DNA of 64,000 bases from Escherichia coli (GCA_025336685.1 GCA_025336685.1_4717.1), one strand, 5' to 3'; shown: positions 8,781-61,094, counted from the first letter of the stretch. The notes: generated by a model from the letters alone, not told the origin. Translations and numbers: made by a program.

Positions 8781-8798
8781 GGGTGGGCGTACCCACCC
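8781..8798 (-). terminator. hairpin GGGTGGG-CGTA-CCCACCC immediately after the thyA stop
   Basis: Perfect 7-bp stem, 4-nt loop (UACG on the minus-strand RNA). Confidence 0.45.
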
Positions 8799-8810
8799 TC
8801 AGTTGTTAAT

Positions 8811-9107
8811 TTATACCGCCACCTTAGCCTTGATAGCAGGGTGTGATTGATAACCGACGAATACAAAGTCTTCGTAGCGGTAATCCGTAATACTTTCCGG
8901 TTTACGTACGATTGTTAGCTTCGGTAATGGATACGGCTCACGACTAAGTTGCTCTTTAACCTGTTCGAAATGGTTGTGATAGATGTGGCAATCCCCACCC
9001 GTCCACACGAACTCACCAACGTCCATATTCAACTGCTGGGCAAGCATATGCGTTAGCAACGAATATGATGCGATGTTGAATGGAACACCTAAAAATACGT
9101 CAGCACT
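8811..9107 (-). CDS. thyA: thymidylate synthase, exon 2
   Basis: [25 protein letters not shown]...[10 protein letters not shown] matches the ThyA C-terminal half; joins in frame to exon 1 ending ...LSCQLYQR. Confidence 0.85.
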
Positions 9108-10214
9108 CATTCTGTTCAGATAAGGTCGTTAATCTTATCCCGTTAAAATAACAGCTGTAGATTATCTCTACAGTTCGGACTATATCACGATCTCCTTCCC
9201 TGGAGACCCCTCCCGTTTCACACCCACTTGGGCGTTACGCTACTCATCACTATTTTTATTCATCCGTTTAGTGCTTTCGCTAGTCTCTGGGCATTCTTCT
9301 ACAAGTCTGTACGATTCAAATTTGGGATTTTTACTACCTAATCGATAAAGTATCGTTGCCGGAACAACACCTAACTGCCGAGCCGCCTCAGTTAAAGAGA
9401 CATACTGAATTCCGTCGATTTCCACTTTACGTGCTGTAGTGGGAATCTTCCCCTTATTCACTTCGGCAAGACGACGTCGCGTCTCTTCTGTATGGTGTCG
9501 CCCATAGAACGAATTCTTTTCCCCGGTTCGGGTTTTTGCAAACTCTGATATCTTTCGACGAGTTTCTTCGCCAACCTTTACACCTAGGCGTCTAGCCCTA
9601 GACGCCGCGATGTTTTCGGGAGTGCATACTTTTCGCCGAATGAGTTCACGTGTTTCCGGTGTATGTGTTCGACCATACATCCCGTTACGTTCGCCCGGAT
9701 TGCCATGAACAGCGCGCCTTTGTTCAGGCGACATCGAAGCGAATCGATCGTTAACGACTTTAGTTATTTTCTCGATTATGTCATCGCGACGTGGGTTTCT
9801 CGATAAATTATCACCGCCTAAAGCACCTTTCCCGATATTGAGAGATGCTTCTTCCGGGATGCTATCGATATACACCTGCTCTAAAGCGTATGCCTCTTCT
9901 CGGGTACTACATTCATCGATATCCACGGTGATAAATCCACCACGGTTATGGATATCTTGTAATTTAGCGTTGTGGTGAGAACCATTACGCAAAGCCGATC
10001 TGTGCGTAGCTAACCGCTGATTAATGTTCCCGGTGCTACCAACATAGACATCGCCGTCTTGAGTACATAACCGATATACTACTGGTTTTTTCATACTGCC
10101 TCCTTTAAAAGAGAGACAGACTTGTAGAAGGTTAGCAACGGATTAGCCCGTAGGCTTTCCCGTTTTAAGGAGGTTATTCGACGTAGCTCACGCTACGAAG
10201 GCGCAGTTGCGTTT
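9108..10214 (-). other. group I intron (1107 nt) in thyA
   Basis: Exon 1 ends in U, intron ends in G (..CUGAACAGAAUG); P-like UUAAAACGGGAAAGCC, Q-like AAUCCGUUGC, R-like CCCAGAGACUAGCGAAAG, S-like GUGAUAUAGUCCG; last ~35 nt closely resemble the T4 td intron 3' end as I recall it. Confidence 0.8.
9240..10094 (-). CDS. GIY-YIG homing endonuclease encoded inside the thyA intron
   Basis: N-terminus VVYRLCTQDGDVYVGSTGNINQRLATH (GIY-YIG), repeated NUMOD-like GxxNxxYGRxHTxETR segments, C-terminal HTH-like region; ATG 10094 preceded by AGGAGG. Confidence 0.85.
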   Translation of the reverse strand: MKKPVVYRLCTQDGDVYVGSTGNINQRLATHRSALRNGSHHNAKLQDIHNRGGFITVDIDECSTREEAYALEQVYIDSIPEEASLNIGKGALGGDNLSRNPRRDDIIEKITKVVNDRFASMSPEQRRAVHGNPGERNGMYGRTHTPETRELIRRKVCTPENIAASRARRLGVKVGEETRRKISEFAKTRTGEKNSFYGRHHTEETRRRLAEVNKGKIPTTARKVEIDGIQYVSLTEAARQLGVVPATILYRLGSKNPKFESYRLVEECPETSESTKRMNKNSDE

Positions 10215-10937
10215 ACGCTGGTAAAGCTGACAGGATAAAGCACGTGTTGGTACGTTATGCGCATTCAACCAAAGTTCTGTTTCACTGCGTCGTACATCAT
10301 CCGTAACCCACTGGGTTCTTAATACGTCGTTGCGCTGGACATAATCAACGCGTTCATCGAGTGTGAGTTCGTGGGTATAGAACTGATAGAATGAATGGCA
10401 CGGAGCGAGATGCATATCGTCTAAATCACCTACGTTCCATGCGCTAACGATGATCCGTCGAGAATCAGGATCTTCTTTAAGCTGACGCATCACGTTTGCA
10501 ATCTGATCGTGATGTCTAACATACACGAGGTGTTTTAGCATACCGTCATTAAGAATGCCGAAATATTCATAGCCGCGTTGCATCAACTCACGAGTACGTT
10601 CTGTATCGTGCGGAACAACCACTTTATAGTCGATCCATTCCCGCCATTGTTTGCCGTAAATCGGTCCTAGATTCCCTTCTTCGTCAGCCCATTCATTCCA
10701 GATACGAACACCGTTATCTTGAAGATAAGCAACGTTTGTGTCGCCGTTAAGAAACCAGAGCAGTTCGTGGATAACGCTCTTAAGGTGAATCTTCTTGGTG
10801 GTTACCAGCGGAAATCCTTTCTTCAAGTCAAAACGCATCTGACGTCCGAATACGGAACGGGTCCCGGTCCCCGTGCGGTCGGCTTTATCGCGACCGTTAT
10901 CCATGATGTCTTGCAAAAGGTCCAAATACTGTTTCAT
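10215..10937 (-). CDS. thyA: thymidylate synthase, exon 1
   Basis: [31 protein letters not shown]...[32 protein letters not shown]...LSCQLYQR; in-frame read-through into the intron gives KRNCAFVA-stop. Confidence 0.85.
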
Positions 10938-11137
10938 TTTAATCCTCTAAGTGTTTCAAGTAGTTCCTGAAATTTATAACGATATTTAGAATCACTTAAC
11001 GTGTAGCAGCAACCACGTAACACGTTATACGCGTAATCAGCTTGTAAACCACGAACCTTCGGATCCAATGATAGATTCAATGACGCGTCATCAAAAATCC
11101 ACGCTTCAATGTTCTTCTTAGATTCCTTCGTTAACAT
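10934..11137 (-). CDS. hypothetical protein
   Basis: Track start 11146 is GTG; ATG 11137 has GAGGTGA upstream; stop overlaps thyA start. Confidence 0.4.
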
Positions 11138-11268
11138 CGTTTTCACCTCGTCGTAAAAGTAAATAGAGTTTTGTCGAGACGCCCTAATTACTTACAACGT
11201 AGGTTCTCCTGGCTTCAGAGAATTCTTAAAATCCGTTAGTTTTGATAGATAGGATAAGACGGCATAAA

Positions 11269-11289
11269 AGCCTCCCATTACGGGAGGCT
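11269..11289 (-). terminator. hairpin AGCCTCCC/GGGAGGCT followed on the minus strand by UUUUAUGCCG
   Basis: 8-bp stem, then U-rich tract. Confidence 0.5.
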
Positions 11290-11301
11290 CCATCAATCAA
11301 C

Positions 11302-11850
11302 TTACTTCACGAGAACAGTGAATTCGAGAACGTAAATAGTCTCGTCATCCATCGGATTTGTCGTGGTATAACCAACAAAGCAATAACCCATATCCGCGAT
11401 AAAATCGCTAAGTTTATCAACATCGCCTACATTGATACGATCATCAACAGACAGACGACATTTACGGGTTATACCACATCCGCGAGGAACACCGGATAAC
11501 ACGGATAGGAAATGCGCGATCCGGTTATTGGTTGCGAACTGTGCATAATCGCCGTAGCGTTTAAGGTCCTTCATCGCAACCTCGACAGCCATACGACGAC
11601 CAGGCGCTACGTATTCAGTGTACGCATACGCTGCGATCGTACGACGATCTTCAGTCAGGTAAGTATTCCCATCAGGATGGTAGCTCTCGATTGTTCCGTC
11701 TTCATAGGTGACGTTTACAACAGGTGCACCGTACTCGTCGCGACCGAATTCAATCTTGCATTTATCCGAAAGCGGTAGAATCGTACACGGTTTTGCGTTG
11801 TTCTCATCGGGGAGATTATAACCGCTCATCATTTTCAAAAAGATAGACAT
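11302..11850 (-). CDS. hypothetical protein, tandem paralog A
   Basis: MSIFLKMMSGYNLPDENNAKP...TIAAYAYTEY aligns with the adjacent 11937..12470 product; RBS GAGGT. Confidence 0.5.
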   Translation of the reverse strand: MSIFLKMMSGYNLPDENNAKPCTILPLSDKCKIEFGRDEYGAPVVNVTYEDGTIESYHPDGNTYLTEDRRTIAAYAYTEYVAPGRRMAVEVAMKDLKRYGDYAQFATNNRIAHFLSVLSGVPRGCGITRKCRLSVDDRINVGDVDKLSDFIADMGYCFVGYTTTNPMDDETIYVLEFTVLVK

Positions 11851-11936
11851 AATAGAACCTCATGATAATAGATAATAGAAATGATAGATAGTACAACAAA
11901 TTGAGGAGGTATTATCCCACCCCCTCGTAGGGATTA

Positions 11937-12470
11937 CTACTTAACGATCGCGATGATTTTGCCGCTCGCACCGGCGTAATATGCTGTTAATTTACCAGTA
12001 AACAACTCTTGTAAAAGACGATTTACATGACTAACAAAGTTAGGGTTGTCTGATTTTACAAACTCGATATTGCGCGTTTGTTTTATATCACGATCGATTA
12101 AGCGTATTTCCAACAACGCACAAATAAGGCGATCGTCAAGTTTACCACTTGTATCCAACACTTCCCCATACGTCGTAGCACGGACGTCCGCATACATACG
12201 GTCAACATCATCCTTCCCAAAACCACAGGAATAGGCATACGTTGCGATGGTATTACCATTGTCCATCACATAAACGTTACCGCCTGGGTAATCGATAAAT
12301 CGTTGATCCTTATCGCCATGAGCGACGAACTCCAGTGTCGGTCTACCTAGTGAATCACGATTGAATTCGATTGTGGTCAAACGGTCAGGTACCACATGCA
12401 ACGTAAACGGTTTCGCATTGTTACGATCGCTAGTATCACAGTTAGCCATTACTTTTACAATAACACTCAT
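11937..12470 (-). CDS. hypothetical protein, tandem paralog B
   Basis: MSVIVKVMANCDTSDRNNAKP...TIATYAYSCGF; RBS AAGGAA. Confidence 0.5.
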   Translation of the reverse strand: MSVIVKVMANCDTSDRNNAKPFTLHVVPDRLTTIEFNRDSLGRPTLEFVAHGDKDQRFIDYPGGNVYVMDNGNTIATYAYSCGFGKDDVDRMYADVRATTYGEVLDTSGKLDDRLICALLEIRLIDRDIKQTRNIEFVKSDNPNFVSHVNRLLQELFTGKLTAYYAGASGKIIAIVK

Positions 12471-12544
12471 GTTTTATTCCTTAGTAGTCCTAGTAGTAGT
12501 ATTGAGGAATTTCACCTCATTAGATAGTCTATTTTGGTAATGTT

Positions 12545-12844
12545 TTACTGAAACAGGACATTAAATTCGACAAGATACCCATCGGATCTATCACCACGAT
12601 AACGGTTGCAGAAAACGCCGAATTTCATCAAGAACTCACATAACTCTTCGGCTTTGTATAACGGAATACGATTTTCGTCGAACAGAGGGCACTTATGGCT
12701 AACCCGCTCCGACGAATCAACGCAACACAAATAAAGAAGGAACCGAACGATAGCTCGGTTCTTAGTGAAGCTCTCGAATTCACCTGCGGTTCTGAACTCA
12801 TCGAGGAGCTTTGTCGTTTTCTTCAATCGTTCACGATCAAGCAT
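12545..12844 (-). CDS. hypothetical protein
   Basis: 99-aa ORF, RBS GAGG. Confidence 0.45.
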   Translation of the reverse strand: MLDRERLKKTTKLLDEFRTAGEFESFTKNRAIVRFLLYLCCVDSSERVSHKCPLFDENRIPLYKAEELCEFLMKFGVFCNRYRGDRSDGYLVEFNVLFQ

Positions 12845-12866
12845 GTTAACCTCAATACGAACATAA

Positions 12867-12898
12867 CCCTCCTCCTTCCCTGATGGGTTGGAGGAGGG
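12867..12898 (-). terminator. hairpin CCCTCCTCC ... GGAGGAGGG
   Basis: 9-bp stem downstream of the 12908 stop. Confidence 0.45.
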
Positions 12899-12907
12899 AA
12901 TATGCTA

Positions 12908-13222
12908 TTATTCTGCTTTAGGCGATGAACCGTTCTTTTTGAAGTCGGATTCGTATTTCACGTTAGAATCGAGAACCTCACGAACGGTTTTATCCGTACA
13001 ACCACGGGCGATGTATGCATTAAGATCGTCGCGTAATTTACGCATTGTTGTTTTATCCGCATCAGAAACATCTGACTTGGTAAGACGGAACGCAATCGCA
13101 TCACGAATTTTATTCAACATTGCTGGGTTATTACGCTGTTCTGCAAATACCGCTTTGATGAACTTATCGCTATCTTTCGAAGCGATGGCTGCATCAAGAA
13201 TCTCAATATGCTTTTCAGACAT
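12908..13222 (-). CDS. hypothetical protein
   Basis: 104-aa ORF, RBS AAAGGAA. Confidence 0.5.
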   Translation of the reverse strand: MSEKHIEILDAAIASKDSDKFIKAVFAEQRNNPAMLNKIRDAIAFRLTKSDVSDADKTTMRKLRDDLNAYIARGCTDKTVREVLDSNVKYESDFKKNGSSPKAE

Positions 13223-13273
13223 CTTCTTTCCTTTATTAAACGATCATCGTCATATTCATTGCGCAGGGTGCTA

Positions 13274-14599
13274 TCACTTCAGAAGCTTAGACATCGCCAT
13301 GCTTCGCGCTAACGCAACATCATACGCATCCATGATCGCGTCACCGATAGCGGTATGACGGATCAGCGGAATACCCATGTCTGGATACTCTTTGGTGCCT
13401 AAGATGGATACCGGTTTGTCTTGATACGCAGCAATCATCGAACGGATATCCTGAACCTGGTTATAACGACAAACTGGCTTAAAGCCCGCTTTACGGAACC
13501 AATGCTCTAATTGAGGCCAATCTGTTTCACCGCGAGCAAGATAATAGAAGGTATCCTTACCGTAGTATTCAGTCATTTTGTCACGAATACTGTTGACGAA
13601 CGCATTTACTTCGGTGATGGCTTCTTTATAACCCATTGCCTTACAATGTTGAAAACAATAGTCGCGCGCTTCCTTTGGTGCTTTGGTTTGCCACCATTCT
13701 ACTGTTGATTCACTGATACGACCACCGTCAGCGATTTGACCATGAACGTCAGGGAAGATATCTATACGCGGACCGTTAACAATGGATTCTGGATTAGCCA
13801 GATCGAAGAACACGATACCGATTTCCAGCAATACTCCATTCTTTTCCAGACTAAGGTTTTCAACATCTAAACAAAATGCAGGCTTCTCTACCGCTAACGG
13901 CTCGAACGAATGGTTGCTGGTATCCGATTCGGTTTTAAGTTCGACGACAACCGGATCGGTATCCGTAGGTTTCAGTTCTACTACAGCATCATCGAGTCCC
14001 GATAACGAAAAATAGTCTTCGAAGAAATCGGGTATCGTCATGCCATGCAAATTGATATCGCAATCTTCCAACCATTGCTTCAACTGGTGCTCACCGGCAT
14101 GAATCGCTAAACGACATGGTCCGGAACGATCATCTAGCGCTGCATCGATCCAGAAGAAAGCGCGTATAAGTAAGTAAGGATTGTACTCCGCGATGATTTC
14201 TTGGCTAGCCGAGAAATCGTACACCATTAGTTGTGTTATTCCCTTACGAGTGTTATACGGATCAACTTTCAATCGACGCACTATTTCTTCTACGAATTCC
14301 AACGCACGCGTGTACGATGTGGACCCACCTTGTTCATACGAACATATACCCGTCAAAAGTTCCTTATAGGACGCATATGGAACCATAGGCGATAATTTGT
14401 ACGACAGTTCAGTATTGTAATTATCGCATAATTTCTTCGGGGCGATAGCATCCTGTATCGCTGTAATAAACGCCGGTCCATCAATATCAAACAACCATCC
14501 TTGACGCCGGTATGCAGTGTATCGTAATAACGCACCGATAACTGCCTGGGGCGGTGTATATTCTTTTCCGTTAATTTCAAACAGTAGTTTGCTCATCAT
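13274..14599 (-). CDS. protein with C-terminal DnaQ-like (DEDDh) 3'-5' exonuclease domain
   Basis: FCLDVENLS (Exo I D-x-E), later HTAIGDAIMDAYDVAL (Exo III H-x-A-x-x-D-A); N-terminal ~230 aa unassigned. Confidence 0.6.
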   Translation of the reverse strand: MMSKLLFEINGKEYTPPQAVIGALLRYTAYRRQGWLFDIDGPAFITAIQDAIAPKKLCDNYNTELSYKLSPMVPYASYKELLTGICSYEQGGSTSYTRALEFVEEIVRRLKVDPYNTRKGITQLMVYDFSASQEIIAEYNPYLLIRAFFWIDAALDDRSGPCRLAIHAGEHQLKQWLEDCDINLHGMTIPDFFEDYFSLSGLDDAVVELKPTDTDPVVVELKTESDTSNHSFEPLAVEKPAFCLDVENLSLEKNGVLLEIGIVFFDLANPESIVNGPRIDIFPDVHGQIADGGRISESTVEWWQTKAPKEARDYCFQHCKAMGYKEAITEVNAFVNSIRDKMTEYYGKDTFYYLARGETDWPQLEHWFRKAGFKPVCRYNQVQDIRSMIAAYQDKPVSILGTKEYPDMGIPLIRHTAIGDAIMDAYDVALARSMAMSKLLK

Positions 14600-14611
14600 A
14601 ACACCTTTTCA

Positions 14612-14947
14612 TTATTCTGGTTTATCTGTTGTCAGGCCGAGTCCGGTCAATATCACGTAGTCGTACCAAGCTTTTACTTTCGCTTTCGCTTCATCTAAAC
14701 TATCGGTGTTGATGTGCGGAAACTCATCGTTGATTGGGAAAGGTAAATCACAGTCGTAGCTTGTATAATCCTTCCAACCTTTCCACTCGATAGTTAGAGA
14801 ACCAAAAACGGTCTCAGCAACAACGTGGTTATAGCGACATTCTTCACATGGCGAGCGCTCTTCCGACCAAACAAGCTCATGCTGCGCTAAAAGTTGTTGT
14901 ACGACCGATAATGGTTGCTCTTCATTAAGTTCGATAATGTCTATCAC
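14612..14947 (-). CDS. hypothetical protein
   Basis: 111-aa ORF. Confidence 0.45.
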   Translation of the reverse strand: MIDIIELNEEQPLSVVQQLLAQHELVWSEERSPCEECRYNHVVAETVFGSLTIEWKGWKDYTSYDCDLPFPINDEFPHINTDSLDEAKAKVKAWYDYVILTGLGLTTDKPE

Positions 14948-15540
14948 CGTATACCCTCCTTTTCCTTATCGTAATTACTACACATATTGACAAACGCAGT
15001 ATTATCAGACAGCATGCTAACCATCTGACGGATTGCGTCCAACGGTTCAAGTTTAGGATTGATTGATTCACCGGTCAACGCGCTTATTGCTCGTGTGATC
15101 TCAGCCAAATCAACGTTCGGGTCTTTATCATCAATGATGAGCAGACTCTTCGCTGGTTTCTGACGACGTTTGATGATTAACAAATACGTGACAAGGTTCT
15201 CACGCCAAGCGTCAGAATCCAGATTGCGTATTACGGTTAACGCGCGACGCTCTTCCGCCCATGATGGTTTCTCACGGATAACGGGCATGTAAGATAATTG
15301 CTCAGCAAGCCCTTTCAAACTGACACGGTTGGTGCCACCAGGATGCTCACTAATCCGCAACATCTCGGTTAACAGACGGACATATGCGGTTGTTGTAGAA
15401 ACACCCCGCAGCGGCAGGAACAAATTATGTCCCGGAACCCCATCATGACTCAGCGGTGCGATATACGCCATGAATTGACGGATATCGTCATCGGTCTGTT
15501 CTCCAGCAACGAACTTAAACGCTTCACGTAGAACGCTCAC
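14944..15540 (-). CDS. hypothetical protein
   Basis: 198-aa ORF. Confidence 0.45.
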   Translation of the reverse strand: MSVLREAFKFVAGEQTDDDIRQFMAYIAPLSHDGVPGHNLFLPLRGVSTTTAYVRLLTEMLRISEHPGGTNRVSLKGLAEQLSYMPVIREKPSWAEERRALTVIRNLDSDAWRENLVTYLLIIKRRQKPAKSLLIIDDKDPNVDLAEITRAISALTGESINPKLEPLDAIRQMVSMLSDNTAFVNMCSNYDKEKEGIR

Positions 15541-15826
15541 TACGAAGTCTCCTTAATGTTTCTTTTATATGCAATCTCTTCGGCAAGTACAGACGTTTGT
15601 ATAGATCAATTAACAGATAACGCATAACAGAAGCGACCACCAGGTATTCACCTTCAGCTTCCGAATAACGTATCATGTTAATTGGGTAATTCAAATAAGA
15701 ATAAGAAAAGAGATCATCGTTGGTAAGGTGATGATCTTCAAGATACTGACGAAACAATTTTGCTAAGGCATCGTACTCCATTCCGTAGTAACACAACGAC
15801 ACCTGTCTTGCAGATAGTCGTTTCAT
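15524..15826 (-). CDS. hypothetical protein
   Basis: 100-aa ORF. Confidence 0.4.
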   Translation of the reverse strand: MKRLSARQVSLCYYGMEYDALAKLFRQYLEDHHLTNDDLFSYSYLNYPINMIRYSEAEGEYLVVASVMRYLLIDLYKRLYLPKRLHIKETLRRLRSERST

Positions 15827-16665
15827 GCTGGGTTACCTTTTAGTTTTCCACGTATCATGTCGACAACGCGTGAGGGATCAGAAATAACATTGGCGATAAG
15901 ATGATCGATAGGTAGGTCGAGAACGATTTTCTTCAGCTGGAAAGCCGTATCTTTACGACGCACGCCGTAGAACACGCCATCTTTAAACACAACCTCGTAC
16001 GAAATGGGGAGCTGGCTAATAACCGTGTTAGCGTAATCACCCAACCACATCGACCCCGCCATCAGATGCGCACAAACCGCATGACTAATACGCACATCTT
16101 TGTTCTTCCGGCTAACGTCTTTGGTTTTCGACATGGTAACCAGAAGTTCACCGATCTTACTCAGCATATCGTCGTATACCCCAAAGAACTTAATCAGTTG
16201 TCGGGCACCTAACGATATATACGTTTCTCGCGGTAAGACACAACACACCTGCGGTAACGTTCCAACCCCATAGACACAACTGTAGGGTGATAATGGGAGC
16301 AAATCAGCAACCGCGTTCTTGATGTTGTTATACTCAACGATATCGTTGAACGGCGAAAGCCCTTTCGTAATCGGTTTATCAATCGCCACATCAAACTCCG
16401 CGAACGTCCATGCTGCTTTACGGGGTTCCCCTTTCTTGTACGGTGGGGCCAGTACCGCAACAACACGAAGTCGATATTCGTGTGTATCGCGTAGCTTAAG
16501 TTGGATACCCTCATCGTCGCCTTCACGCACAAGTGAGTAGCGGCTCGCGCAACCATCACAGGCCACCGTTGGTTCGTGTTGACCGTATGCTGCAAGCATT
16601 GGTTTACTAAGATCTTTATCACAGTGTTTACAATGATGATCCTGTTCCTGATAACTGATTTTCAC
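15823..16665 (-). CDS. hypothetical protein with N-terminal zinc-ribbon-like CxxC..CxxC
   Basis: CKHCDKD...CDGCASR near the N-terminus. Confidence 0.5.
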   Translation of the reverse strand: MKISYQEQDHHCKHCDKDLSKPMLAAYGQHEPTVACDGCASRYSLVREGDDEGIQLKLRDTHEYRLRVVAVLAPPYKKGEPRKAAWTFAEFDVAIDKPITKGLSPFNDIVEYNNIKNAVADLLPLSPYSCVYGVGTLPQVCCVLPRETYISLGARQLIKFFGVYDDMLSKIGELLVTMSKTKDVSRKNKDVRISHAVCAHLMAGSMWLGDYANTVISQLPISYEVVFKDGVFYGVRRKDTAFQLKKIVLDLPIDHLIANVISDPSRVVDMIRGKLKGNPA

Positions 16666-16680
16666 ATCAGGGCTCCTTTG

Positions 16681-17637
16681 TTAATGTAATACGCGATCTA
16701 CTGGAATTGTCGAAGCGTTGCTGGCGGACAGATTCGTTGCTTTACGATCGGGACTGAATCGACGAGCGTTCTCTTCATGGTAGTTAACAGGGTTGTCCTG
16801 TTTCAGCAATTCTATTGCTTCATCAAACGCTAATTCCCTATAACCCTTTGGATATAGGAACAGAGGTTCGTCAATATCCAACCCTTTAACAAACTCATGC
16901 GACAACCAAACGCTACCATCGGCACTGTAAAGAACAGGCTCAACATCATAATCCAAAACGTATTGATACCAGTAATTAAACAGTTGGGCGATCCATCGAT
17001 TACGTAATAAATAATCGATTACGACCGCACTACGCACGCTATGGCACCAGCCGATCTTACCGTCAACTCTCTGTAACAATGTACCGTCATTTGCTTGGTG
17101 GATGACAGCATTAAATAACCAGGCAAGATCGGTTGCGAAAAGTGCCGCTTCTTGAATATCGCTAATGTAGCGCACAGGTATCGTCAGATGAGTGCGGTAA
17201 TGCGCCATCGCTTCTTCGTAGTTGTCTCCTTCGATACAGAGAATACCATTTGACGACAGATGCCCCTGATTCAATGACTGGCTGATATAAAGATCAGCGA
17301 TCGCGTTAATATGTTCGACGGTACCCAAGGTTAATTCGGACATAAAACGATCAACGTCAACAGACATCGATGTACCGGAAATGAACGGATTGGCTGGGCG
17401 AGCCGTATTAGAGAAAATGATCGACCAGATCGCTTCGTGTTTTTCATCCGATGGGACAAACGAAATATGACGTTCTGCACTATTATCATCAACAGATACT
17501 TCTACTGTTTTCAAACAGCTAGTACAAACATAACACGTGTTCGGCAACGGCATATCCGAAAACATATCGTAACGAATTGTCGCAATTGAAATATCGTGTC
17601 CGCAGTGAGGGCATGTGGTATCAATAAGTGTTCTCAT
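16681..17637 (-). CDS. hypothetical protein with N-terminal zinc-ribbon-like CxxC..CxxC
   Basis: CPHCGHD...CYVCTSC near the N-terminus. Confidence 0.5.
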   Translation of the reverse strand: MRTLIDTTCPHCGHDISIATIRYDMFSDMPLPNTCYVCTSCLKTVEVSVDDNSAERHISFVPSDEKHEAIWSIIFSNTARPANPFISGTSMSVDVDRFMSELTLGTVEHINAIADLYISQSLNQGHLSSNGILCIEGDNYEEAMAHYRTHLTIPVRYISDIQEAALFATDLAWLFNAVIHQANDGTLLQRVDGKIGWCHSVRSAVVIDYLLRNRWIAQLFNYWYQYVLDYDVEPVLYSADGSVWLSHEFVKGLDIDEPLFLYPKGYRELAFDEAIELLKQDNPVNYHEENARRFSPDRKATNLSASNASTIPVDRVLH

Positions 17638-17903
17638 TGTTGAATTCCTTTTGATAAGAATAACTGTATATCGGTAAACTGTTCTTTAGGAACATCGTCG
17701 GCAGCCGTTAGAACCTCAGGGCCGTGTTCGTTGAGGTAAGCTTCTCGTTGAAGATGATAAAGTCGATTGGCTTCTTGGAACTCAGTGTCCGTCATGTAAA
17801 CCAACTTAAACTTCGAACGTTTATTCGGATTATATCTCTTATTACGTTTCTTTGGTTTCTTCGCCATAATAGCCTCGTGAAGGTGGATGGGTGTACCATC
17901 CAC
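17634..17903 (-). CDS. hypothetical basic protein
   Basis: 89-aa ORF. Confidence 0.4.
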   Translation of the reverse strand: MDGTPIHLHEAIMAKKPKKRNKRYNPNKRSKFKLVYMTDTEFQEANRLYHLQREAYLNEHGPEVLTAADDVPKEQFTDIQLFLSKGIQQ

Positions 17904-17914
17904 CTTCCTCCATG

Positions 17915-18436
17915 TTAAAGTGCGTTCATTTCTTCAGGTGTGCGTACAGTGCGCGTGTTGGGATCGACCATTGCTGGTACGCCCGCAGGACATTTACGGA
18001 CATCAATCCGCATCTCCGGCTCGATCGGACGAACGCGATACGTTTTACCATCGTCGGTTAACACCGAAATGGTCAACGCTTGGTTCAATTCATTAACGAA
18101 GTTCACCAAACGCTGCTGCCCGCCTGTCGACCAGAAGTTAAGATCGGTTTCTCCGCTGAAATAACTGATTCCTTCGGCGGTCCCAATCGTGATTTTAACG
18201 ATGCCTGGATAGTCACGAAGAAGGGGTGCCTGATAACCTTCATCTTCCGTATCCAATTTTACCCACGCGCCTCCCGTAGACAAGCAGTTAACTTCCAAGG
18301 CGGTTGGCGCACTGACTTCTGCCGATGACCAGGTATACATCGTACCTAGTTTAGCGTGTCCGGTTTCCAGCTCACTGTAATCCCAAGCGTGTGCTGATGC
18401 TGTAATAAAGAGGGCTGCAAGAAACAACTTTTTCAT
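17915..18436 (-). CDS. predicted secreted/periplasmic protein
   Basis: MKKLFLAALFITASAHA-WDY: n-region, hydrophobic core, AxA cleavage motif; RBS AGGAA. Confidence 0.5.
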   Translation of the reverse strand: MKKLFLAALFITASAHAWDYSELETGHAKLGTMYTWSSAEVSAPTALEVNCLSTGGAWVKLDTEDEGYQAPLLRDYPGIVKITIGTAEGISYFSGETDLNFWSTGGQQRLVNFVNELNQALTISVLTDDGKTYRVRPIEPEMRIDVRKCPAGVPAMVDPNTRTVRTPEEMNAL

Positions 18437-18491
18437 TCTTTTCGATTCCTATTAAAAGTGACCGATTTCTGTGGTCAGGATTGCTAATACA

Positions 18492-18926: not shown

Positions 18927-19000
18927 TCTAACGCCTTTGTTGTTTGTTTTCATGTCCTATACGAACACGAAAAACCGTTAATTTTTACCTTGGTTGCGTG

Positions 19001-19288: not shown

Positions 19289-19314
19289 AGCAGGTACCGG
19301 TAACGCGGCATAAA

Positions 19315-19332
19315 CCCTCCCCGAAGGGAGGG
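19315..19332 (-). terminator. hairpin CCCTCCC-CGAA-GGGAGGG (UUCG loop on RNA) followed by UUUAUGCCG
   Basis: Perfect 7-bp stem, tetraloop, U-rich tail. Confidence 0.55.
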
Positions 19333-19342
19333 CGGTTAATGA

Positions 19343-20379: not shown

Positions 20380-20401
20380 TCATTATTCTCCGCTTTCATG
20401 T

Positions 20402-21088: not shown

Positions 21089-21136
21089 CGCACGTACCTC
21101 TTTGAATCGGTAGATAGATTAATAGATATTGATTAC

Positions 21137-21161: not shown

Positions 21162-21304
21162 GGATTTGTGTTGGTCCGTTTCGATGCCCATCGTATTTTA
21201 TGGATTGTCGAATGACGTCATTTTAAGGGACATCCCCGACCTCCTCCCCACACCTTTCCAGGGGAGGAGTTTTATCATACTTTTCTATTAATTCGAGCGC
21301 GATT

Positions 21305-23386: not shown

Positions 23387-23392
23387 TTAAGA

Positions 23393-23418
23393 AGCTCTGT
23401 CTGATGTCAGACAGAGCT
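23393..23418 (+). terminator. hairpin AGCTCTGTCT-GATGTC-AGACAGAGCT followed by TTTATGCCG
   Basis: 10-bp perfect stem 6 nt after the helicase stop. Confidence 0.6.
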
Positions 23419-23485
23419 TTATGCCGTGTTTGTTACAAAATCGTATGGCGTATATGCGTTGTACTTATTAAATAGGACAGAATAC

Positions 23486-24937: not shown

Positions 24938-24956
24938 AAAAAAATAGTTAGCATAT

Positions 24957-24989
24957 CTTCCTCCCTACCCATAACGGGCGGGGAGGAAG
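24957..24989. terminator. hairpin CTTCCTCCC ... GGGAGGAAG between convergent genes
   Basis: 9-bp stem, followed by GTTTATG on the plus strand. Confidence 0.5.
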
Positions 24990-25006
24990 GTTTATGTGGC
25001 TATGAC

Positions 25007-26235: not shown

Positions 26236-26303
26236 ATATGCTCCGGTTGTAAGGGCCTGCTTCGAGGCCCTTCATTGATTTTTGATTCCACCAAACGCTA
26301 TCG

Positions 26304-30626: not shown

Positions 30627-30656
30627 CCCTCCCACCTCCACACGGGAGAGGGAGGG
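30627..30656 (-). terminator. hairpin CCCTCCC ... GGGAGGG
   Basis: 7-bp outer stem downstream of the 30670 stop. Confidence 0.4.
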
Positions 30657-31416: not shown

Positions 31417-31495
31417 ACCAGGGATCCTCTTTTTAAGTCTTCACATTCTAGTGTTAAGCAGTTAAAATAAACCGTCCCTTTAATCAGCATAAACA

Positions 31496-31525
31496 TCCTC
31501 CTCCCACCACATGGGTAGGAGGAGG
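31496..31525 (-). terminator. hairpin CCTCCTCC ... GGAGGAGG followed by AUGUUUAUGCUG
   Basis: 8-bp stem; a GTAATATA word sits between the upstream stop and the hairpin. Confidence 0.4.
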
Positions 31526-31536
31526 CGTAATATACA

Positions 31537-34158: not shown

Positions 34159-34512
34159 ATGTCTAACACGCCCCTGAACGACTTTCTTAAGACAAACCCC
34201 GATGACCTCATCCACGATCTTGATTTCAGGAACGTTGTTGAGATGCATCTGGAATATTTCAAAAATGCCGGACTGGTCTCTACGATAGACATACCACCCG
34301 AACGCGCCTACGAATTCGATGGTAACTTTTATGGATTGTGTCGTGTTCTGCTCGGCGAGGGCAGTGAATCAATGCACTGGATCACCATGAGACTCAATGG
34401 TTATCGCGACCCTACGGAATACACCGCCGATGTTCTAACCATGAAGATTGTCGATACAAGCGCAATCAACACATTAAAACAACAGTACCGCACAATCCAC
34501 TACAGCGCTTAA
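34159..34512 (+). CDS. hypothetical protein
   Basis: Track start is TTG at 34147; ATG 34159 (MSNTPLNDF) has GAGG RBS; divergent from the beta-like gene. Confidence 0.45.
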   Translation: MSNTPLNDFLKTNPDDLIHDLDFRNVVEMHLEYFKNAGLVSTIDIPPERAYEFDGNFYGLCRVLLGEGSESMHWITMRLNGYRDPTEYTADVLTMKIVDTSAINTLKQQYRTIHYSA

Positions 34513-34517
34513 GATAA

Positions 34518-34546
34518 CCCTCCCACAGCGTAAAGCGTAGGGAGGG
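34518..34546 (+). terminator. hairpin CCCTCCC ... GGGAGGG followed by CATTTATGCCG
   Basis: 7-bp stem with 15-nt loop, 6 nt after the stop. Confidence 0.5.
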
Positions 34547-34577
34547 CATTTATGCCGTCGTTCGTTGGCTTAGCACA

Positions 34578-35858: not shown

Positions 35859-35887
35859 ATTGCGTTTCCTTTTCTTTTACGTCAACG

Positions 35888-35906
35888 GTCCCCTACAACA
35901 GGGGAC
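35888..35906 (-). terminator. hairpin GTCCCCT-ACAAC-AGGGGAC
   Basis: 7-bp perfect stem just downstream of the 35914 stop; no U-tract. Confidence 0.35.
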
Positions 35907-35913
35907 CTATGGA

Positions 35914-43785: not shown

Positions 43786-43866
43786 TCTGTTCTCCCCAAG
43801 CTTTTCATTTCATAGAGTGGTGGAAATTCGTAGAAAGTTACAAAAATAAAAAGAATGGGTAGTCCC

Positions 43867-43887
43867 TCCCCACCCGAAGGTAGGGAG
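43867..43887 (-). terminator. hairpin CTCCCCACC-CGAA-GGTAGGGAG followed on the minus strand by a U-rich run
   Basis: 9-bp stem with one mismatch; UUCUUUUUAUUUUUG follows. Confidence 0.5.
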
Positions 43888-43902
43888 AGACCACAGATGT
43901 AT

Positions 43903-45284: not shown

Positions 45285-45325
45285 GATTGTCCTCGTTTTC
45301 AATTTAAGATTACATGCAGCATAAA

Positions 45326-45350
45326 CCCTCCCCGCATAAGGCAGGGAGGG
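45326..45350 (-). terminator. hairpin CCCTCCC ... GGGAGGG followed by UUUAUGCUG
   Basis: 7-bp stem. Confidence 0.45.
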
Positions 45351-45365
45351 TAGCCATTGAATAGA

Positions 45366-48925: not shown

Positions 48926-48967
48926 GGGACATCTCCTACAAATGAAAAAGAACGTTAGGACGTATAA

Positions 48968-48991
48968 GGGAGGGAGGTTGCCCTCCCTCCC
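48968..48991 (-). terminator. hairpin GGGAGGGAGG-TTGC-CCTCCCTCCC upstream of the beta-prime-like gene
   Basis: 10-bp perfect stem. Confidence 0.5.
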
Positions 48992-51167: not shown

Positions 51168-52262
51168 ATGTTTCGTGTTTTAAATAACCTCCCGCGAACA
51201 TCATCGGGTGTGCAACCCGTCCCTCAGAAAGACTATCTAATACGCGAAGTTCAAAGAAACCTACAGACAATCCAGAACCACTATCAGGGTTTTACCTTCG
51301 CGGTTCAGAGCGATCACATCCTTGCGTTGCTGCTCGCACAGCTCCCTATGAGATACGACATCTCAGTACAAACTTACTACGACATGATTCTCGATCTTAC
51401 TCCAGAATTGGGTAATCGTGTTAAGTTGACAACATCAAGATACGCGGGTAAGTTATTCGACGGAGCCTTCTATCCGGGATTGCATGAAGCTATTATCGCA
51501 ACCGGTGAAAGTCGTCTTATTTCACGTGACGTTCTTGACAACTGGCGTAATTGGTCACCAGTTAGAATCGTGACGCACCCATACGCAAATCTTCGTTACA
51601 TTCCTCTTCACCAAAAGCAGGTTGAGGAAGGACGGGGGTTTGCGGTCATTATGGTTGATGTACCTTTATTAGCGCTACAGTATCGAATGTGGTCTTTGGT
51701 CATGGGGCATAACGTCGATGGTAAATGGGTGGTTAAAGAACCGGTTACAAGCTTCCTTGCGAGTTTTCCGTTGGTTAACGCATTATACTCACACAACGAT
51801 GTTGTCGTACGCAACCGCTGTTTGTGGGTATCTCCGGCTAAGAATCCACTCAAATCACCAATTTACGTTAACGACCTTGATAACGTATTCGACCAAGTCG
51901 CTCTGTCCGTACAGCATCATTTATTACGAAGAAGACGAAGCTACACCGACATGCTTAAACAGATACCGAGTTTATACGGGGATCAGTACCAAGCAACCCG
52001 AATGGGCTACACCGTTGATCTTCGACAAACCCGATGGGCAAGGGATCTGGGTTGTCTGTCATTATGGCAGCAACTCGTCACGTTGCAAAACGTATCTGAA
52101 AGCGTCGGATTTAGCAGTCAAATCGATAACGACCTGTACCGTGCTGCCGACCGGAGTCTAAAAGAAGGTAACTGGGAATCCTCTCCGTTACCTGGCGATT
52201 TAAGACGTGAAGTTATTGCACAGGTTGCCGACCTCTTAAAAATTCTTCCTGCTGGTGCATAA
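51168..52262 (+). CDS. hypothetical protein
   Basis: 364-aa plus-strand ORF with GGAG RBS. Confidence 0.5.
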   Translation: MFRVLNNLPRTSSGVQPVPQKDYLIREVQRNLQTIQNHYQGFTFAVQSDHILALLLAQLPMRYDISVQTYYDMILDLTPELGNRVKLTTSRYAGKLFDGAFYPGLHEAIIATGESRLISRDVLDNWRNWSPVRIVTHPYANLRYIPLHQKQVEEGRGFAVIMVDVPLLALQYRMWSLVMGHNVDGKWVVKEPVTSFLASFPLVNALYSHNDVVVRNRCLWVSPAKNPLKSPIYVNDLDNVFDQVALSVQHHLLRRRRSYTDMLKQIPSLYGDQYQATRMGYTVDLRQTRWARDLGCLSLWQQLVTLQNVSESVGFSSQIDNDLYRAADRSLKEGNWESSPLPGDLRREVIAQVADLLKILPAGA

Positions 52263-52281
52263 CCACCTCCTTCTTTCCACG

Positions 52282-52313
52282 CATCCTCCCAACCCGTAAG
52301 GGAAGGGAGGATG
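52282..52313. terminator. hairpin CATCCTCCC ... GGGAGGATG between convergent genes
   Basis: 9-bp outer stem plus inner CCC-GTAA-GGG. Confidence 0.45.
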
Positions 52314-52328
52314 GGGTGGTGGGTTATG

Positions 52329-54482: not shown

Positions 54483-54556
54483 AAATCCTCCAAAAGTTAT
54501 TTAGTCTGTCTACATCATCTCGTATATCTGTTAAAAAAGAAGGACGGCATAAAAAG

Positions 54557-54584
54557 AACCGATCCAGCCGAAGCCAGATCGGTT
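54557..54584 (-). terminator. hairpin AACCGATC ... GATCGGTT followed on the minus strand by CUUUUUAUGCCG
   Basis: 8-bp stem, U-rich tail. Confidence 0.55.
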
Positions 54585-58390: not shown

Positions 58391-58412
58391 GCTTTCTCCT
58401 ACACGGCATAAA

Positions 58413-58434
58413 AGCCTGCCCCGAAGGACAGGCT
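58413..58434 (-). terminator. hairpin AGCCUGUCC-UUCG-GGGCAGGCU followed by UUUUAUGCCG
   Basis: 9-bp stem (one G.U), UUCG loop, U-tract. Confidence 0.55.
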
Positions 58435-58443
58435 CGATAGAAC

Positions 58444-58826: not shown

Positions 58827-59660
58827 TTAAAACAAACGACGTCGCTTCTGAATCAGGCTGCTTTCAGGTACAAAACCGTCACAGCTGTAAATAGCGTTAA
58901 CACCCATGACTTTAGTCGCGTCTTTCGGATAAAGCGTACAGAAAGCAATAGGACTATCGTTCTCTTTCGTCCAATCGTATCCCACGAACGTATTCAGTTC
59001 GGTGATCGTTGGTTCCAAACCGGTAACACGTGGATGGTTTAAGAAGTTTTCCAGGTCGGCGCTGTCAAGACGACGGTTCTCACCAGAAAACAGAACACAA
59101 AGCTGGCTAATAACAACCTGCACGTCCAGGTTGACATCCTGCTCCGATTTCCCATTTTCGCCATTCATGTGATAGCTAACAATCACCGGACGTTTCAATC
59201 CTTCTGCAGCTGCCATCAGTCCTTTAAAGGTACGATCGGCGTTGATCGTTTGACGCTCATCATCGAACGAGGCAACGATGCAACACACCACACGTTCACC
59301 GCGTTCCAGCAGGTTAGCAACCAACGCAGGACCTGCAACAGAACCTGAACCACCGCTCAGACTAAAGACCACGATATTAAATTTACCAGGCGTATGCTTA
59401 TTGAGAATGCCTGGGATTTGTGAACAGATCAGTTCAGCGTTCTCATCACGCTTCTTACCAGAACCGTCTAACTCACGACCCGCCGCATCTTTAAAGATGT
59501 AGATATGATCGTCGTCCAGTGCGCTATCGCGTAGGTTAGCCCGGCTGGTATCAACATACGTCATGCTGTGTAATCCTTTCGCGACTTCGCCTTCAAACGC
59601 TGAGCCGATTTCGCCACCACAACCACCAACAGCCCAAATATGTACTTGGTTCTCTTGCAT
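58827..59660 (-). CDS. phuZ: PhuZ-like phage tubulin
   Basis: IWAVGGCGGEIG (tubulin/FtsZ N-terminal G-box) and FSLSGGSGSVAGP (GGGTGSG-type loop); block order matches PhuZ as I recall it; 277 aa, apparently lacking a C-terminal tail. Confidence 0.75.
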   Translation of the reverse strand: MQENQVHIWAVGGCGGEIGSAFEGEVAKGLHSMTYVDTSRANLRDSALDDDHIYIFKDAAGRELDGSGKKRDENAELICSQIPGILNKHTPGKFNIVVFSLSGGSGSVAGPALVANLLERGERVVCCIVASFDDERQTINADRTFKGLMAAAEGLKRPVIVSYHMNGENGKSEQDVNLDVQVVISQLCVLFSGENRRLDSADLENFLNHPRVTGLEPTITELNTFVGYDWTKENDSPIAFCTLYPKDATKVMGVNAIYSCDGFVPESSLIQKRRRLF

Positions 59661-59724
59661 GTGAACTCCTAATTTAATATGTATTTAACGTACAATGAAT
59701 CTTTCTTTGCTAAAGGGGTGACCC

Positions 59725-60567
59725 ATGGGTGCTATTGACCACAGTGTAGATCGTATCTGTCGTACAATACCGGCAGATATCCTACAGTATTGCTATATCG
59801 ATCGTTACGACTGGCGTAATCGCTATCCTCGTTCCGTAGAAGACATCATTACCGATTGGGTAATCCGTAAACGGGTTATCGGTGACATCGATATCTACGG
59901 GGGACTACAAACCGTTATTCCCCTCGATGATGCTGGCGTCACAGTCGAAGAAGTCACCATTAATTGTTATGTTTTCCACATCCCGTTGGAAGCCACGCAG
60001 GGACGTTATATCACGTCCGCATTATCCATTATCTCAGGGAGCGTGAACAACTACGGAATAAACTATAACGGGCAATGGGGTGCTTTCAACCAAACCCAGT
60101 TTCAACGTCAGCTTTGTGGGTGGAACCCCGCAAGCAACACGTTACAGCAAGGGATGAATGCTTTCGGTCCCATGAACGTTCTTAGTACGGCCAACGTTGA
60201 TATCATCGCCCCTAACACCATCATGGTGAACAACGTCACGCCGGTACAATTTCCCCTGAGTCTACGTTGTTTTCTTGCCCACGATCCGGAACTCACCAAC
60301 CTCAGCATGGAAGTTTGGAACGACTTCTACAAACTCTGTTTATACGCCACGCAAAGTGACATCTACAACAGAACCGTTATCCGTCTCGATAGAGGTGTTA
60401 CAGCACAAGGACAAGAAGTCGGTGCATTCAAGGAATACATCGATCGCTTTGCTGATGCTGAAAACACATATCAGGAATTCCTGAACGAAACGTGGGCTGG
60501 CGTTGCTGCCTGGAACGATCCACAAACTAAACGTCGCGCCATTCGACTACAAACCGGCTACTTCTGA
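59725..60567 (+). CDS. hypothetical protein
   Basis: 280-aa ORF, RBS AAGGGG, divergent from phuZ. Confidence 0.5.
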   Translation: MGAIDHSVDRICRTIPADILQYCYIDRYDWRNRYPRSVEDIITDWVIRKRVIGDIDIYGGLQTVIPLDDAGVTVEEVTINCYVFHIPLEATQGRYITSALSIISGSVNNYGINYNGQWGAFNQTQFQRQLCGWNPASNTLQQGMNAFGPMNVLSTANVDIIAPNTIMVNNVTPVQFPLSLRCFLAHDPELTNLSMEVWNDFYKLCLYATQSDIYNRTVIRLDRGVTAQGQEVGAFKEYIDRFADAENTYQEFLNETWAGVAAWNDPQTKRRAIRLQTGYF

Positions 60568-61094
60568 TTAACGACAGCTTCCTCCCTCGGTGTTTTCGAG
60601 GGAGGTATTTGCCGTTTGAACACTTTCAGCACGTTCGCAAAATCAGCAGCAATAATACAGGCCGAGGCTGATAGCTTATTGCTGAAAATGAGATCGTCCG
60701 GTAAACAATCGAACTGAATACCATATTGCGTCTTTGTCTCGTCAACGATCAGTGACGGTGTCGATCCTGTCTTCGCAATATCGGTGATGTACAAACGTAA
60801 AAATAATTCACCGTCTTCGCTATCAATAAAACGATAAGCGTTACCGGAAAACGCAGCATACGGCGTAACGATAAATTGAACACGATCGTCGGTCGGGTGG
60901 ATTTGTAACCAACGTTCGACATCGTTATTGCTCACATTCTGCATACGTAACACCGTGAATGCGAACAGTGTATCGTGATGCTTGGAATAATGCAGCACAT
61001 ACGCCGCATCTTTCTTTCTGTGAATCCCTTCAATATATTCTATTGTCGTGTAGCCTGATTTATATAGCTTTACTTGCGGTTTATCACTCATCAT
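60558..61094 (-). CDS. hypothetical protein
   Basis: ATG 61094 (MMSDKPQVKLYK) overlapping the upstream stop. Confidence 0.45.
   Translation of the reverse strand: MMSDKPQVKLYKSGYTTIEYIEGIHRKKDAAYVLHYSKHHDTLFAFTVLRMQNVSNNDVERWLQIHPTDDRVQFIVTPYAAFSGNAYRFIDSEDGELFLRLYITDIAKTGSTPSLIVDETKTQYGIQFDCLPDDLIFSNKLSASACIIAADFANVLKVFKRQIPPSKTPREEAVVNQK
60581..60605 (+). terminator. hairpin CCTCCCTCG-GTGTTTT-CGAGGGAGG followed by TATTTGCCG
   Basis: 9-bp perfect stem 14 nt after the stop; overlaps the 3' coding end of the convergent gene. Confidence 0.5.

Follow-up and report, generated by a model that had tools for sequence, protein, structure and literature searches.

Hairpins with a conserved TTATG tail at the gene ends of a Goslar-like jumbo phage: probable terminators of the phiKZ type

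The question raised by the DNA investigated in this study, a stretch of 64,000 nucleotides from the Escherichia coli assembly GCA_025336685.1 (the window, always meant at its full length), is why so many of its genes are followed by a GC-rich hairpin and, just behind it on the transcribed strand, by a short tail of the type UUUAUGCCG. An earlier account made from the sequence alone (the sequence-only reading) had taken the hairpins as likely terminators or stabilisers of RNA 3' ends, and the tail as equally a termination signal or a second class of promoter. We hold it very probable that hairpin and tail together are intrinsic-type terminators of a phiKZ-like, nucleus-forming jumbo phage, in the form that the Goslar lineage gives to the motif described from the phages phiKZ and 201phi2-1. 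The finding is real and is mostly already known, since what is new about this phiKZ-type motif is the genus and the host in which it is met.

With reference to its similarities, we assign the window to a relative of Goslar, that is, to a phiKZ-like chimallivirus jumbo phage. Positions 18000-26000 showed 93.7% identity to Escherichia phage vB_EcoM_Goslar with 100% query cover in megablast, and the gene map, obtained by placing the annotated coding sequences (CDS) of Goslar with blastn, consists of orthologs of Goslar_00121 to Goslar_00208 that span the whole window, nearly throughout on the minus strand. The two marks of a phiKZ-like jumbo phage genome are both present, namely the gene of chimallin, the nuclear-shell protein (49018-50913, 98% identical to Goslar-like contigs of the IMG/VR database), and orthologs of several subunits of the phage's own multisubunit RNA polymerase (RNAP). 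Goslar is a nucleus-forming phiKZ-like jumbo phage whose genome is transcribed by two phage-encoded multisubunit RNAPs and not by the host enzyme. Within 8000-27999, matches to sigma-70-type promoters were fewer than in shuffled sequence (29 vs 37.3 +/- 5.6) and canonical terminators with a U-tract were not enriched (23 vs 18 +/- 4.1), which is consistent with transcription independent of the host polymerase.

The association of hairpin and tail is confirmed, strongly non-random and more extensive than first described. An inspection of all intergenic regions, each on the strand that is transcribed, together with a dedicated scan for hairpins adjoining TTAT, revealed about 17 gene-end hairpins in the window, the arms mostly of the form CCYCCC/GGGRGG, with (T)TTATG(C)(Y)G behind them on the sense strand. 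Between stem end and TATG there are 1-5 nt, most often 2. The tail core TTTATGCC occurs six times against 1.84 expected, a count reached by none of 100 shuffles, and CCCTCCC occurs 15 times against 2.5 expected, likewise never matched by shuffling. All six core copies extend to TTTATGCCG and lie 0-3 nt 3' of a GC-rich hairpin, at the same coordinates and on the same strands as the sequence-only reading had given. The UNCG-type loops it had described were also recovered, as C(UUCG)G at five sites (19314, 54557, 58412, 43859 and 39233). Besides TTTATGCCG (6), the tail types are TTATGCCG, TTTATGCTG (2), TTTATGTGG, TTATGTTCG, TTTATAC, TTATAC, TTATC and TATTTGCCG, and a further pair, TTATGTT and TTATGCAC, which are the two strands of one hairpin. 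When the tail is relaxed to TTATGCCG, TTTATGCTG, TTTATGTGG, TTATGTT, TTTATAC and TTATAC, the sites at 997, 12867, 24955, 31493, 45325, 48968, 52275 and 63885 are added.

Among the 13 copies of TATGCCG in the window, all seven intergenic ones stand directly after a hairpin of -17.5 to -21 kcal/mol, whereas all six within genes are without a comparable one (-3.5 to -11.5 kcal/mol). For compact intergenic hairpins with a folding free energy of -15 kcal/mol or below, TTAT begins no more than 8 offsets from the end of the stem in 10 of 25 strand views, against a background of 4.6% (binomial 7e-8), and for CDS-internal hairpins of that stability it does so in 0 of 19. All the hairpins listed below score z values of -3.1 to -6.5 against dinucleotide shuffles. 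RNALfold, run at -9/-10 kcal/mol and a span of 45 nt, returned structures in coding regions by the hundred, and the census was therefore narrowed to single, compact hairpins with a cut-off of -13 to -15 kcal/mol; a loose test of whether a hairpin precedes the tail had a background of 13%, and a site-by-site listing was used in its place. No Rfam family matched at the hairpins, the only hit of that search in the window being a group I intron at 47281-47660.

With respect to genes, the elements are placed as ends and not as beginnings. The tail always shares its sense strand with the gene that ends just upstream, and the distance from stop codon to hairpin has a median of 12.5 nt (interquartile range 8-22). 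The distance to the next start codon on the same strand, in contrast, is broad (2-396 nt), and four sites have no such gene, so that the coupling is tight to stop codons and not to start codons. All four convergent gene junctions of the window carry a hairpin of this kind; at three of them (24947-25000, 34508-34557 and 52258-52328) a TTAT/TATG tail is found on both strands, while at the fourth the hairpin lies inside the overlapping convergent gene (60581-60614).

Pairing of the stems is under selection, as a comparison with Goslar and among the sites themselves indicates. Stems unrelated in sequence (AGCCUCCC, CCCUCCC, AAGCUCUGUCUG, AACCGAUCUGGC, GAGCCUGUCC and GCCGUCUCG) all pair and all lead into the same tail. 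Relative to Goslar, compensatory double substitutions are seen at 23392 (U-A to C-G), 43859 (two pairs) and 3772 (G-C to A-U), along with a G-U to G-C change at 11903, whereas the loops vary freely, three clean loop inversions included. The tail is likewise retained: TTTATG is kept at 14 of the 15 tailed sites compared, and the positions that follow are either C or T, these being the very positions given as Y in the phiKZ consensus. As a separate observation, at 21241-21269, 45325-45351 and 12867-12898 the loop, or inner stem and loop, is the approximate reverse complement of its Goslar counterpart between unchanged outer stems, and these three replacements look like inversions across palindromes.

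The same composite is known from phiKZ, in which Putzeys et al. 2024 (Microlife) located 133 termination sites by ONT-cappable-seq, 61 of the mapped terminators sharing 5'-BCCYCCCCHWWDGGGRRGGBYTTATKYYGT-3' (PMC10914365). In the window we find each part of it: 5' arms like CCYCCCC and 3' arms like GGGRRGG in hairpins of -15 to -29 kcal/mol, with a minority using other stems, as in phiKZ; and directly after the stem the tail YTTATKYYGT, as six exact copies of TTTATGCCG and about ten more sites with TTATG or TTATA variants. The tail consensus is KKTTATGCYG in the window (n=16) and TTATKYYG in 24 phiKZ terminators of Table S4 of Putzeys et al. Both phages, members of the Chimalliviridae, combine a GC hairpin of pyrimidine and purine arms with a tail TTATG-Y-Y-G(T), at sense-strand gene ends and with bidirectional versions at convergent ones, and they also have loops in common, CCCTCCC-GTAAT-GGGAGGG and its -TTCG- form. 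A whole hairpin even recurs, since phiKZ terminators T040 and T059 (CCCTCCC-GTAAT-GGGAGGG) correspond to AGCCTCCC-GTAAT-GGGAGGCT at 11268. The window differs in its host (E. coli, not Pseudomonas), in its genus (Goslarvirus), in a more uniform tail (TTTATGCCG) and in the usual absence of an upstream CATAA. Many phiKZ terminator hairpins in Table S4 carry such a 5' CATAA, the complement of the TTATG tail, which makes them symmetric or bidirectional and their stems extendable; in the window this symmetry was noticed at convergent junctions only.

In 201phi2-1, of the genus Serwervirus and again from another host, motif A (n=59), alone or with motif B, is a stem-loop terminator at many transcription termination sites (TTS), and the combined forms lengthen the stem. 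The authors say that motif A 'strongly resembles' the phiKZ motif, a likeness that rests on this statement and not on a comparison of logos, and among eight strong terminators tested in vivo they found two co-occurring motifs to surpass a single motif in termination strength (PMC11512511).

Transcript ends could be compared with the composite in phiKZ. We took TTS and transcription start sites (TSS) from the bioRxiv supplement and applied the same hairpin-plus-TTAT scanner to phiKZ positions 69-119 kb; optical character recognition had made offsets based on the supplement's sequences slightly noisy, and the offsets were re-measured on the phiKZ genome. Measured from the A of the nearest TTAT that adjoins a hairpin, ten of the 23 mapped TTS have an offset between -1 and +4 nt (median +2), indicating that transcripts end within UUAUG(Y), 5-8 nt past the stem. 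A TSS at the tail G, on the other hand, was found at none of 37 hairpin-plus-TTAT sites in this interval; the nearest TSS (P049) belongs to a second TATG 8 nt further downstream, and others are 23-39 nt away. It is in phiKZ that the coincidence with mapped 3' ends was observed, and by analogy the same 3' ends presumably form in the phage of the window.

On this basis a mechanism can be proposed. The phage multisubunit RNAP would transcribe beyond the stop codon, and the nascent RNA would form a GC-rich stem-loop of great stability, its 5' arm rich in pyrimidines, its 3' arm rich in purines and its loop often UUCG or GUAAU. By then on the weak rU:dA-rich hybrid of UUUAU, the polymerase would release the transcript about 5-8 nt past the stem, within UUAUG(Y). 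UUUAU would make up the weak upstream half of the RNA:DNA hybrid and the conserved G-C-Y-G may slow forward translocation; the conserved AUGCYG might therefore stand in for a long U-tract by slowing or pausing the enzyme, with a pyrimidine at the 3' end, a G next and a GC-rich duplex downstream. A 3'-end pyrimidine, an incoming G and a G about 10 nt upstream, which here belongs to the purine arm, are reminiscent of the consensus at which multisubunit polymerases generally pause. At convergent ends, hairpins with a tail on both strands would act bidirectionally.

Compared with the canonical Rho-independent terminator, the hairpin is as it should be, stable, GC-rich and directly upstream of the release site, and it is followed by a U-rich segment, with the phiKZ 3' ends a few nt past the stem. 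The U-rich segment differs, as it consists of UUU-A-U only and is then followed by the conserved GCYG, and the polymerase is a phage-encoded enzyme of split subunits, not the host RNAP. T7 RNAP, a single-subunit polymerase, has a class II termination or pause signal made of a short conserved sequence by a U-rich stretch, free of any hairpin. The element described here shares with that signal a phage polymerase and a short conserved DNA/RNA sequence, and it differs in that the hairpin is always present.

Several points weigh against reading the composite as a terminator. Termination in this phage is deduced from the homology of its motif with that of phiKZ, and 3' ends from ONT-cappable-seq cannot by themselves separate termination from processing or from exonuclease trimming back to a hairpin. 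The tail is found on only about half of the strong gene-end hairpins, about nine of equal strength in the window being without one. It is not invariant either, since the Goslar ortholog of the site at 23392 reads TTCATGCTG, the sole exception among the 15 compared. In phiKZ, several strong hairpin-plus-TTATG sites have no mapped TTS, which makes the composite an imperfect predictor. Moreover, the U-tract holds 4 T in 8 (TTTATGCC), one fewer than the minimum of 5 in the canonical rule, and hence a purely canonical mechanism does not explain why the sequence of the tail is conserved. A consensus terminator scan by this rule over 8000-27999 reported no tailed hairpin and none of the TTTATGCCG sites, whose U-tract is short and interrupted.

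The conserved tail might be more than a weak U-tract. According to a 2026 structure of the phiKZ non-virion RNAP, it is the core beta-like subunit GP123, and not the sigma-like GP68, that binds single-stranded non-template TATG at -3..+1 (PMC12809450). Since the TATG core of the tail is invariant and phiKZ 3' ends centre on its G, the elongating enzyme might read the tail through the same pocket, making it a polymerase-specific signal, a suggestion that we put forward tentatively and consider rather unlikely. If so, once ...UUUAU had been transcribed, the non-template TATG would fill the pocket of a GP123-type subunit, thereby anchoring or pausing the complex exactly 5-6 nt beyond the hairpin, and termination would ensue despite the short U-tract. 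Transcription units would in that case have their starts and their ends marked by one and the same protein-DNA contact, and stopping followed by restarting would be possible at some sites, such as 58405. That the tail and the late promoter have TATG in common is an interesting coincidence.

The tail could, alternatively, be a late or middle promoter of the non-virion RNAP (TATG with G as +1), the hairpin being merely the terminator of the upstream gene or half of a combined stop-and-restart module. The sequence-only reading had pointed to a TATG element in late promoters of phiKZ-like phages, and rightly so for phiKZ, for their core is TATG with the start at G, some additional undefined downstream sequence being needed (Yakunina et al. 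2015, PMC4666361); this TATG is contained in the tail. Tails stand at a promoter-like distance from a Shine-Dalgarno sequence and ATG at 58405, 19307 and 23418, the first of these, with its 17-nt leader holding AGGAG, being the only place where the tail-to-start geometry suits a promoter. In addition, phiKZ promoters often follow terminators by 8-40 nt, and recent preprints report a coupling of promoters and terminators in bacteria. Against this, three tails (24955+, 34518+ and 52275+) and one variant tail (60581+) face a convergent gene and have no co-directional gene downstream, the next same-strand genes being 9 kb and 17 kb off for 24955+ and 34518+, respectively. Intergenic TATGCCG or TTATGCY free of a hairpin was not found in the window, apart from one start codon and one antisense copy, and a TTATGC-type tail occurs in none of its five divergent promoter regions, where the sole tail is the hairpin-attached TTTTATC at 21241. 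In phiKZ, no hairpin stands before the late-promoter TATG, and a TSS is mapped at its G, whereas the tail TATG has mapped 3' ends, ten in the interval tested, and no TSS. Again, none of 59 upstream sequences of phiKZ TSS (P008-P066) ends in a hairpin-abutting TTATG, several of them holding a terminator tail further upstream. The start and end positions in phiKZ, the convergent junctions and the absence of hairpin-free copies together disfavour a promoter, which we regard as improbable. The terminator or 3'-end part of the original proposal therefore stands, as the element is the one mapped in phiKZ and phiKZ 3' ends coincide with it, and the part that put a second promoter class on an equal footing is not supported.

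Processing offers another origin for the same 3' ends: an endonuclease, such as the RNase E of the host or an enzyme of the phage, would cleave within the single-stranded UUUAU, leaving a new 3' end that the hairpin shields from exonucleases as mRNAs leave the phage nucleus. The extreme stability of the hairpins with their UUCG and similar loops, and an AU-rich, single-stranded tail adjoining the stem, would suit such a role, and mapping of 3' ends is in itself blind to the difference between cleavage and termination. Moreover, in many hairpins of equal strength a U-rich tail is missing and the next start codon is 4-28 nt away, a position at which it would be counter-productive to terminate. 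However, the phiKZ 3' ends were called on full-length reads enriched for 5'-triphosphates, together with a drop in read-through (PMC10914365), and their position 5-8 nt past the stem is that of intrinsic termination. Furthermore, terminators of 201phi2-1 with related motifs blocked a downstream reporter in uninfected P. chlororaphis (PMC11512511). Processing as the main function is decidedly improbable on this evidence.

We consider it highly improbable that the tail is instead bound by a phage factor of termination, antitermination or RNA export, with the hairpin insufficient alone and termination dependent on the factor. The conservation of TTATGCYGT across phages of Pseudomonas and E. coli does exceed the needs of a U-tract, and antitermination was raised as a possibility by the 201phi2-1 authors, yet some of their terminators function in uninfected cells (PMC11512511). 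No such phage factor is known, and ChmC, the RNA-binding protein of Goslar and PhiPA3, binds near start codons and without a motif; the ChmC study by enhanced crosslinking and immunoprecipitation, checked for a binding motif at 3' hairpins, contains none. Lastly, although CCCTCCC/GGGAGGG arms are common to many hairpins and the loop inversions relative to Goslar show recombination at palindromes, there is next to no chance that the hairpins are copies of a small mobile repeat (like repetitive extragenic palindromic sequences or miniature inverted-repeat transposable elements) or an accident of composition without a role in transcription, as the stems at 23392, 54557, 58412 and 63885 are unrelated to the CCCTCCC type and share the tail, the stems show compensatory changes, shuffles stay below the observed counts, and neither the unrelated stems nor the strict sense orientation at gene ends agrees with the copies, alignable over their full length and oriented independently of genes, that such a repeat would give.

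Reading the composite as a terminator of the phage machinery also agrees with its distribution beyond the window. In the whole Goslar genome, an unbiased test of 5-mers in the 14 nt after strong hairpins puts TTATG at the top (25 vs 3.9 expected, p=4e-13) and TTTAT and TATGC next to it, and about 25-30 hairpin-plus-TTATG sites are scattered over that genome. An exact scan of IMG/VR with the strict pattern CCCTCCC-N3-8-GGGAGGG-N0-3-TTATGCCG returned 112 stretches, where less than one would be expected by chance (an estimate that assumes the size of the database); among the matches listed, 71 of 80 come from contigs 220-325 kb long, and one contig can hold as many as 13. Four of the loci were placed by DNA similarity, one in PhiPA3 itself (100% identity), two on Noxifer-like contigs (77% and 79%) and one on a more distant phiKZ-like contig. 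This spread marks the composite as a signature of phiKZ-like jumbo phages. An IMG/VR search with the chimallin protein retrieved Goslar-like contigs only, and a chimallin link for all the motif-bearing contigs is thus unsupported. As the phiKZ signal, tail included, is kept in phages of Pseudomonas and of E. coli, it belongs to the transcription machinery of the phage and not to that of the host. We found no literature report of the motif or of transcript ends for Goslar. In practical terms, a stable hairpin with TTATG(C)YG behind it on the sense strand is a simple rule by which to annotate where transcription units end in genomes of Goslar-like phages and other chimalliviruses. Most of these sites escape standard terminator finders because the U-tract is short.

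Table 1. Gene-end and related hairpins of the window, those with a tail first and strong hairpins without one after them.
Coordinates	Strand	Hairpin	Sequence after the stem	Position and comparison with Goslar
988..1030	-	997-1030, -20.3 kcal/mol	tail GTTATGCCG	17 nt past Goslar_00123 ortholog stop
11260..11290	-	GAGCCUCCC-GUAAU-GGGAGGCUU	tail TTTATGCCG	3' of Goslar_00143 ortholog; counterpart in Goslar annotated as putative terminator
12858..12898	-	CCCTCCTCC..GGAGGAGGG, -23.4 kcal/mol	tail TTATGTTCG	9 nt past Goslar_00146 ortholog
19306..19333	-	GCCCUCCC-UUCG-GGGAGGGU	tail TTTATGCCG	9 nt past Goslar_00157 ortholog
21241..21276	+	CTCCTCCCC-N11-GGGGAGGAG	TTTTATC	divergent region upstream of helicase gene; counterpart in Goslar annotated as terminator
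23392..23426	+	12 bp, AAGCUCUGUCUG-AUGU-CAGACAGAGCUU	tail (TT)TATGCCG	3' of helicase gene; compensatory U-A to C-G
24947..25000	both	bidirectional	tail TTTATGTGG on +, ATATGCTAAC on -	convergent Goslar_00161/00162 orthologs
31485..31528	-	-24.4 kcal/mol	tail TTTATGCTG	8 nt past Goslar_00170 ortholog
34508..34557	both	bidirectional, CCCTCCC..GGGAGGG	tail CATTTATGCCG on +, TTATCTTAAG on -	convergent Goslar_00172 (+)/00173 (-)
45317..45351	-	ACCCUCCCUGC-CUUAU-GCGGGGAGGGU	tail TTTATGCTG	3' of Goslar_00184 ortholog; tail ATG is annotated start of next gene
48959..48991	-	GGGAGGGAGG-GCAA-CCUCCCUCCC, -22.4 kcal/mol	variant tail TTATACGTC	26 nt past chimallin gene
52258..52328	both	long, bidirectional, -29.2 kcal/mol	TTATG on both strands (GGGTTATGTT, GGTTATGCAC)	convergent Goslar_00190 (+)/00191 (-)
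54545..54584	-	12 bp, UUCG loop	CTT, then tail TTTATGCCG	196 nt past Goslar_00192 ortholog; counterpart in Goslar annotated as terminator
58404..58435	-	GAGCCUGUCC-UUCG-GGGCAGGCUU	tail TTTATGCCG	8 nt past Goslar_00200 ortholog, 21 nt before next start codon
60581..60614	+	CCUCCCUCGG-UGUUU-UCGAGGGAGG	variant tail TATTTGCCG	3' of Goslar_00202 ortholog, within convergent gene 00203
63873..63910	-	GCCGUCUCG..CGAGACGGU	AAG, then tail TTTATACTG	3' of Goslar_00208 ortholog
3772..3805	-	strong, gene end	no TTAT tail	compensatory G-C to A-U
8780..8799	-	AGGGUGGG-UACG-CCCACCCU, gene end	no tail	
11903..11926	-	gene end	AATTTGTTG in place of TTATG	counterpart in Goslar annotated as terminator
26248..26274	-	gene end	no tail	next start codon 12 nt on
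30627..30656	-	CCCTCCCTCTCC..GGAGGTGGGAGGG	no tail	next start codon 4 nt on
35887..35907	-	GGUCCCCU..AGGGGACC, gene end	no tail	
43859..43894	-	very stable, -30.3 kcal/mol, UUCG loop	CCATTCTTTTTATTTTTG, no adjoining TTATG	two compensatory changes

The hairpins without a tail tend to sit 4-28 nt before the next start codon and may be stabilisers, or weak elements that permit read-through. The hairpin at 21241..21276 is possibly a terminator or attenuator in a 5' untranslated region. The annotated ATG of the Goslar_00183 ortholog (45320-45322) lies in a terminator tail, TTTATGCTG, and is without a Shine-Dalgarno sequence; the true start is probably downstream of it.

Apart from the hairpins, two loci of the window differ from Goslar. 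The thymidylate synthase ortholog (Goslar_00141, 8811-10937, minus strand) is split into 8811-9094 and 10231-10937 by an insert of 1.1 kb (9095-10230) that has no counterpart in Goslar. An open reading frame (ORF) in the insert, 9240-10094, displays GIY-YIG, NUMOD3 and I-TevI DNA-binding domains, so that the insert resembles the T4 td intron with I-TevI; no Rfam intron was detected at this insert, even at E<=0.1. In the region of the RNAP beta'-like gene, the intron at 47281-47660 (minus strand) is a group I intron, RF00028, with 50.3 bits, and an adjoining HNH_3 ORF (46265-47248) has no nucleotide match to the NUMOD1/HNH gene found at the same place in Goslar; the homing endonuclease appears to have been swapped.

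Additionally, TATATTAC, the conserved core of the early (virion-RNAP) promoters of phiKZ in the published TSS table, is present five times in the window, all on the minus strand (21145, 31527, 39184, 44461 and 50986). The count alone is not significant (5 vs 2.6 expected), and the placement is striking, as every copy lies between genes and runs in their direction, one of them upstream of chimallin. One copy belongs to the 242-nt intergenic region 39089-39330 (minus strand), which holds a UUCG hairpin (39233-39268, -27 kcal/mol), a second small hairpin, the TATATTAC box and a further hairpin; an array of terminators and promoters and a small RNA are both conceivable here.

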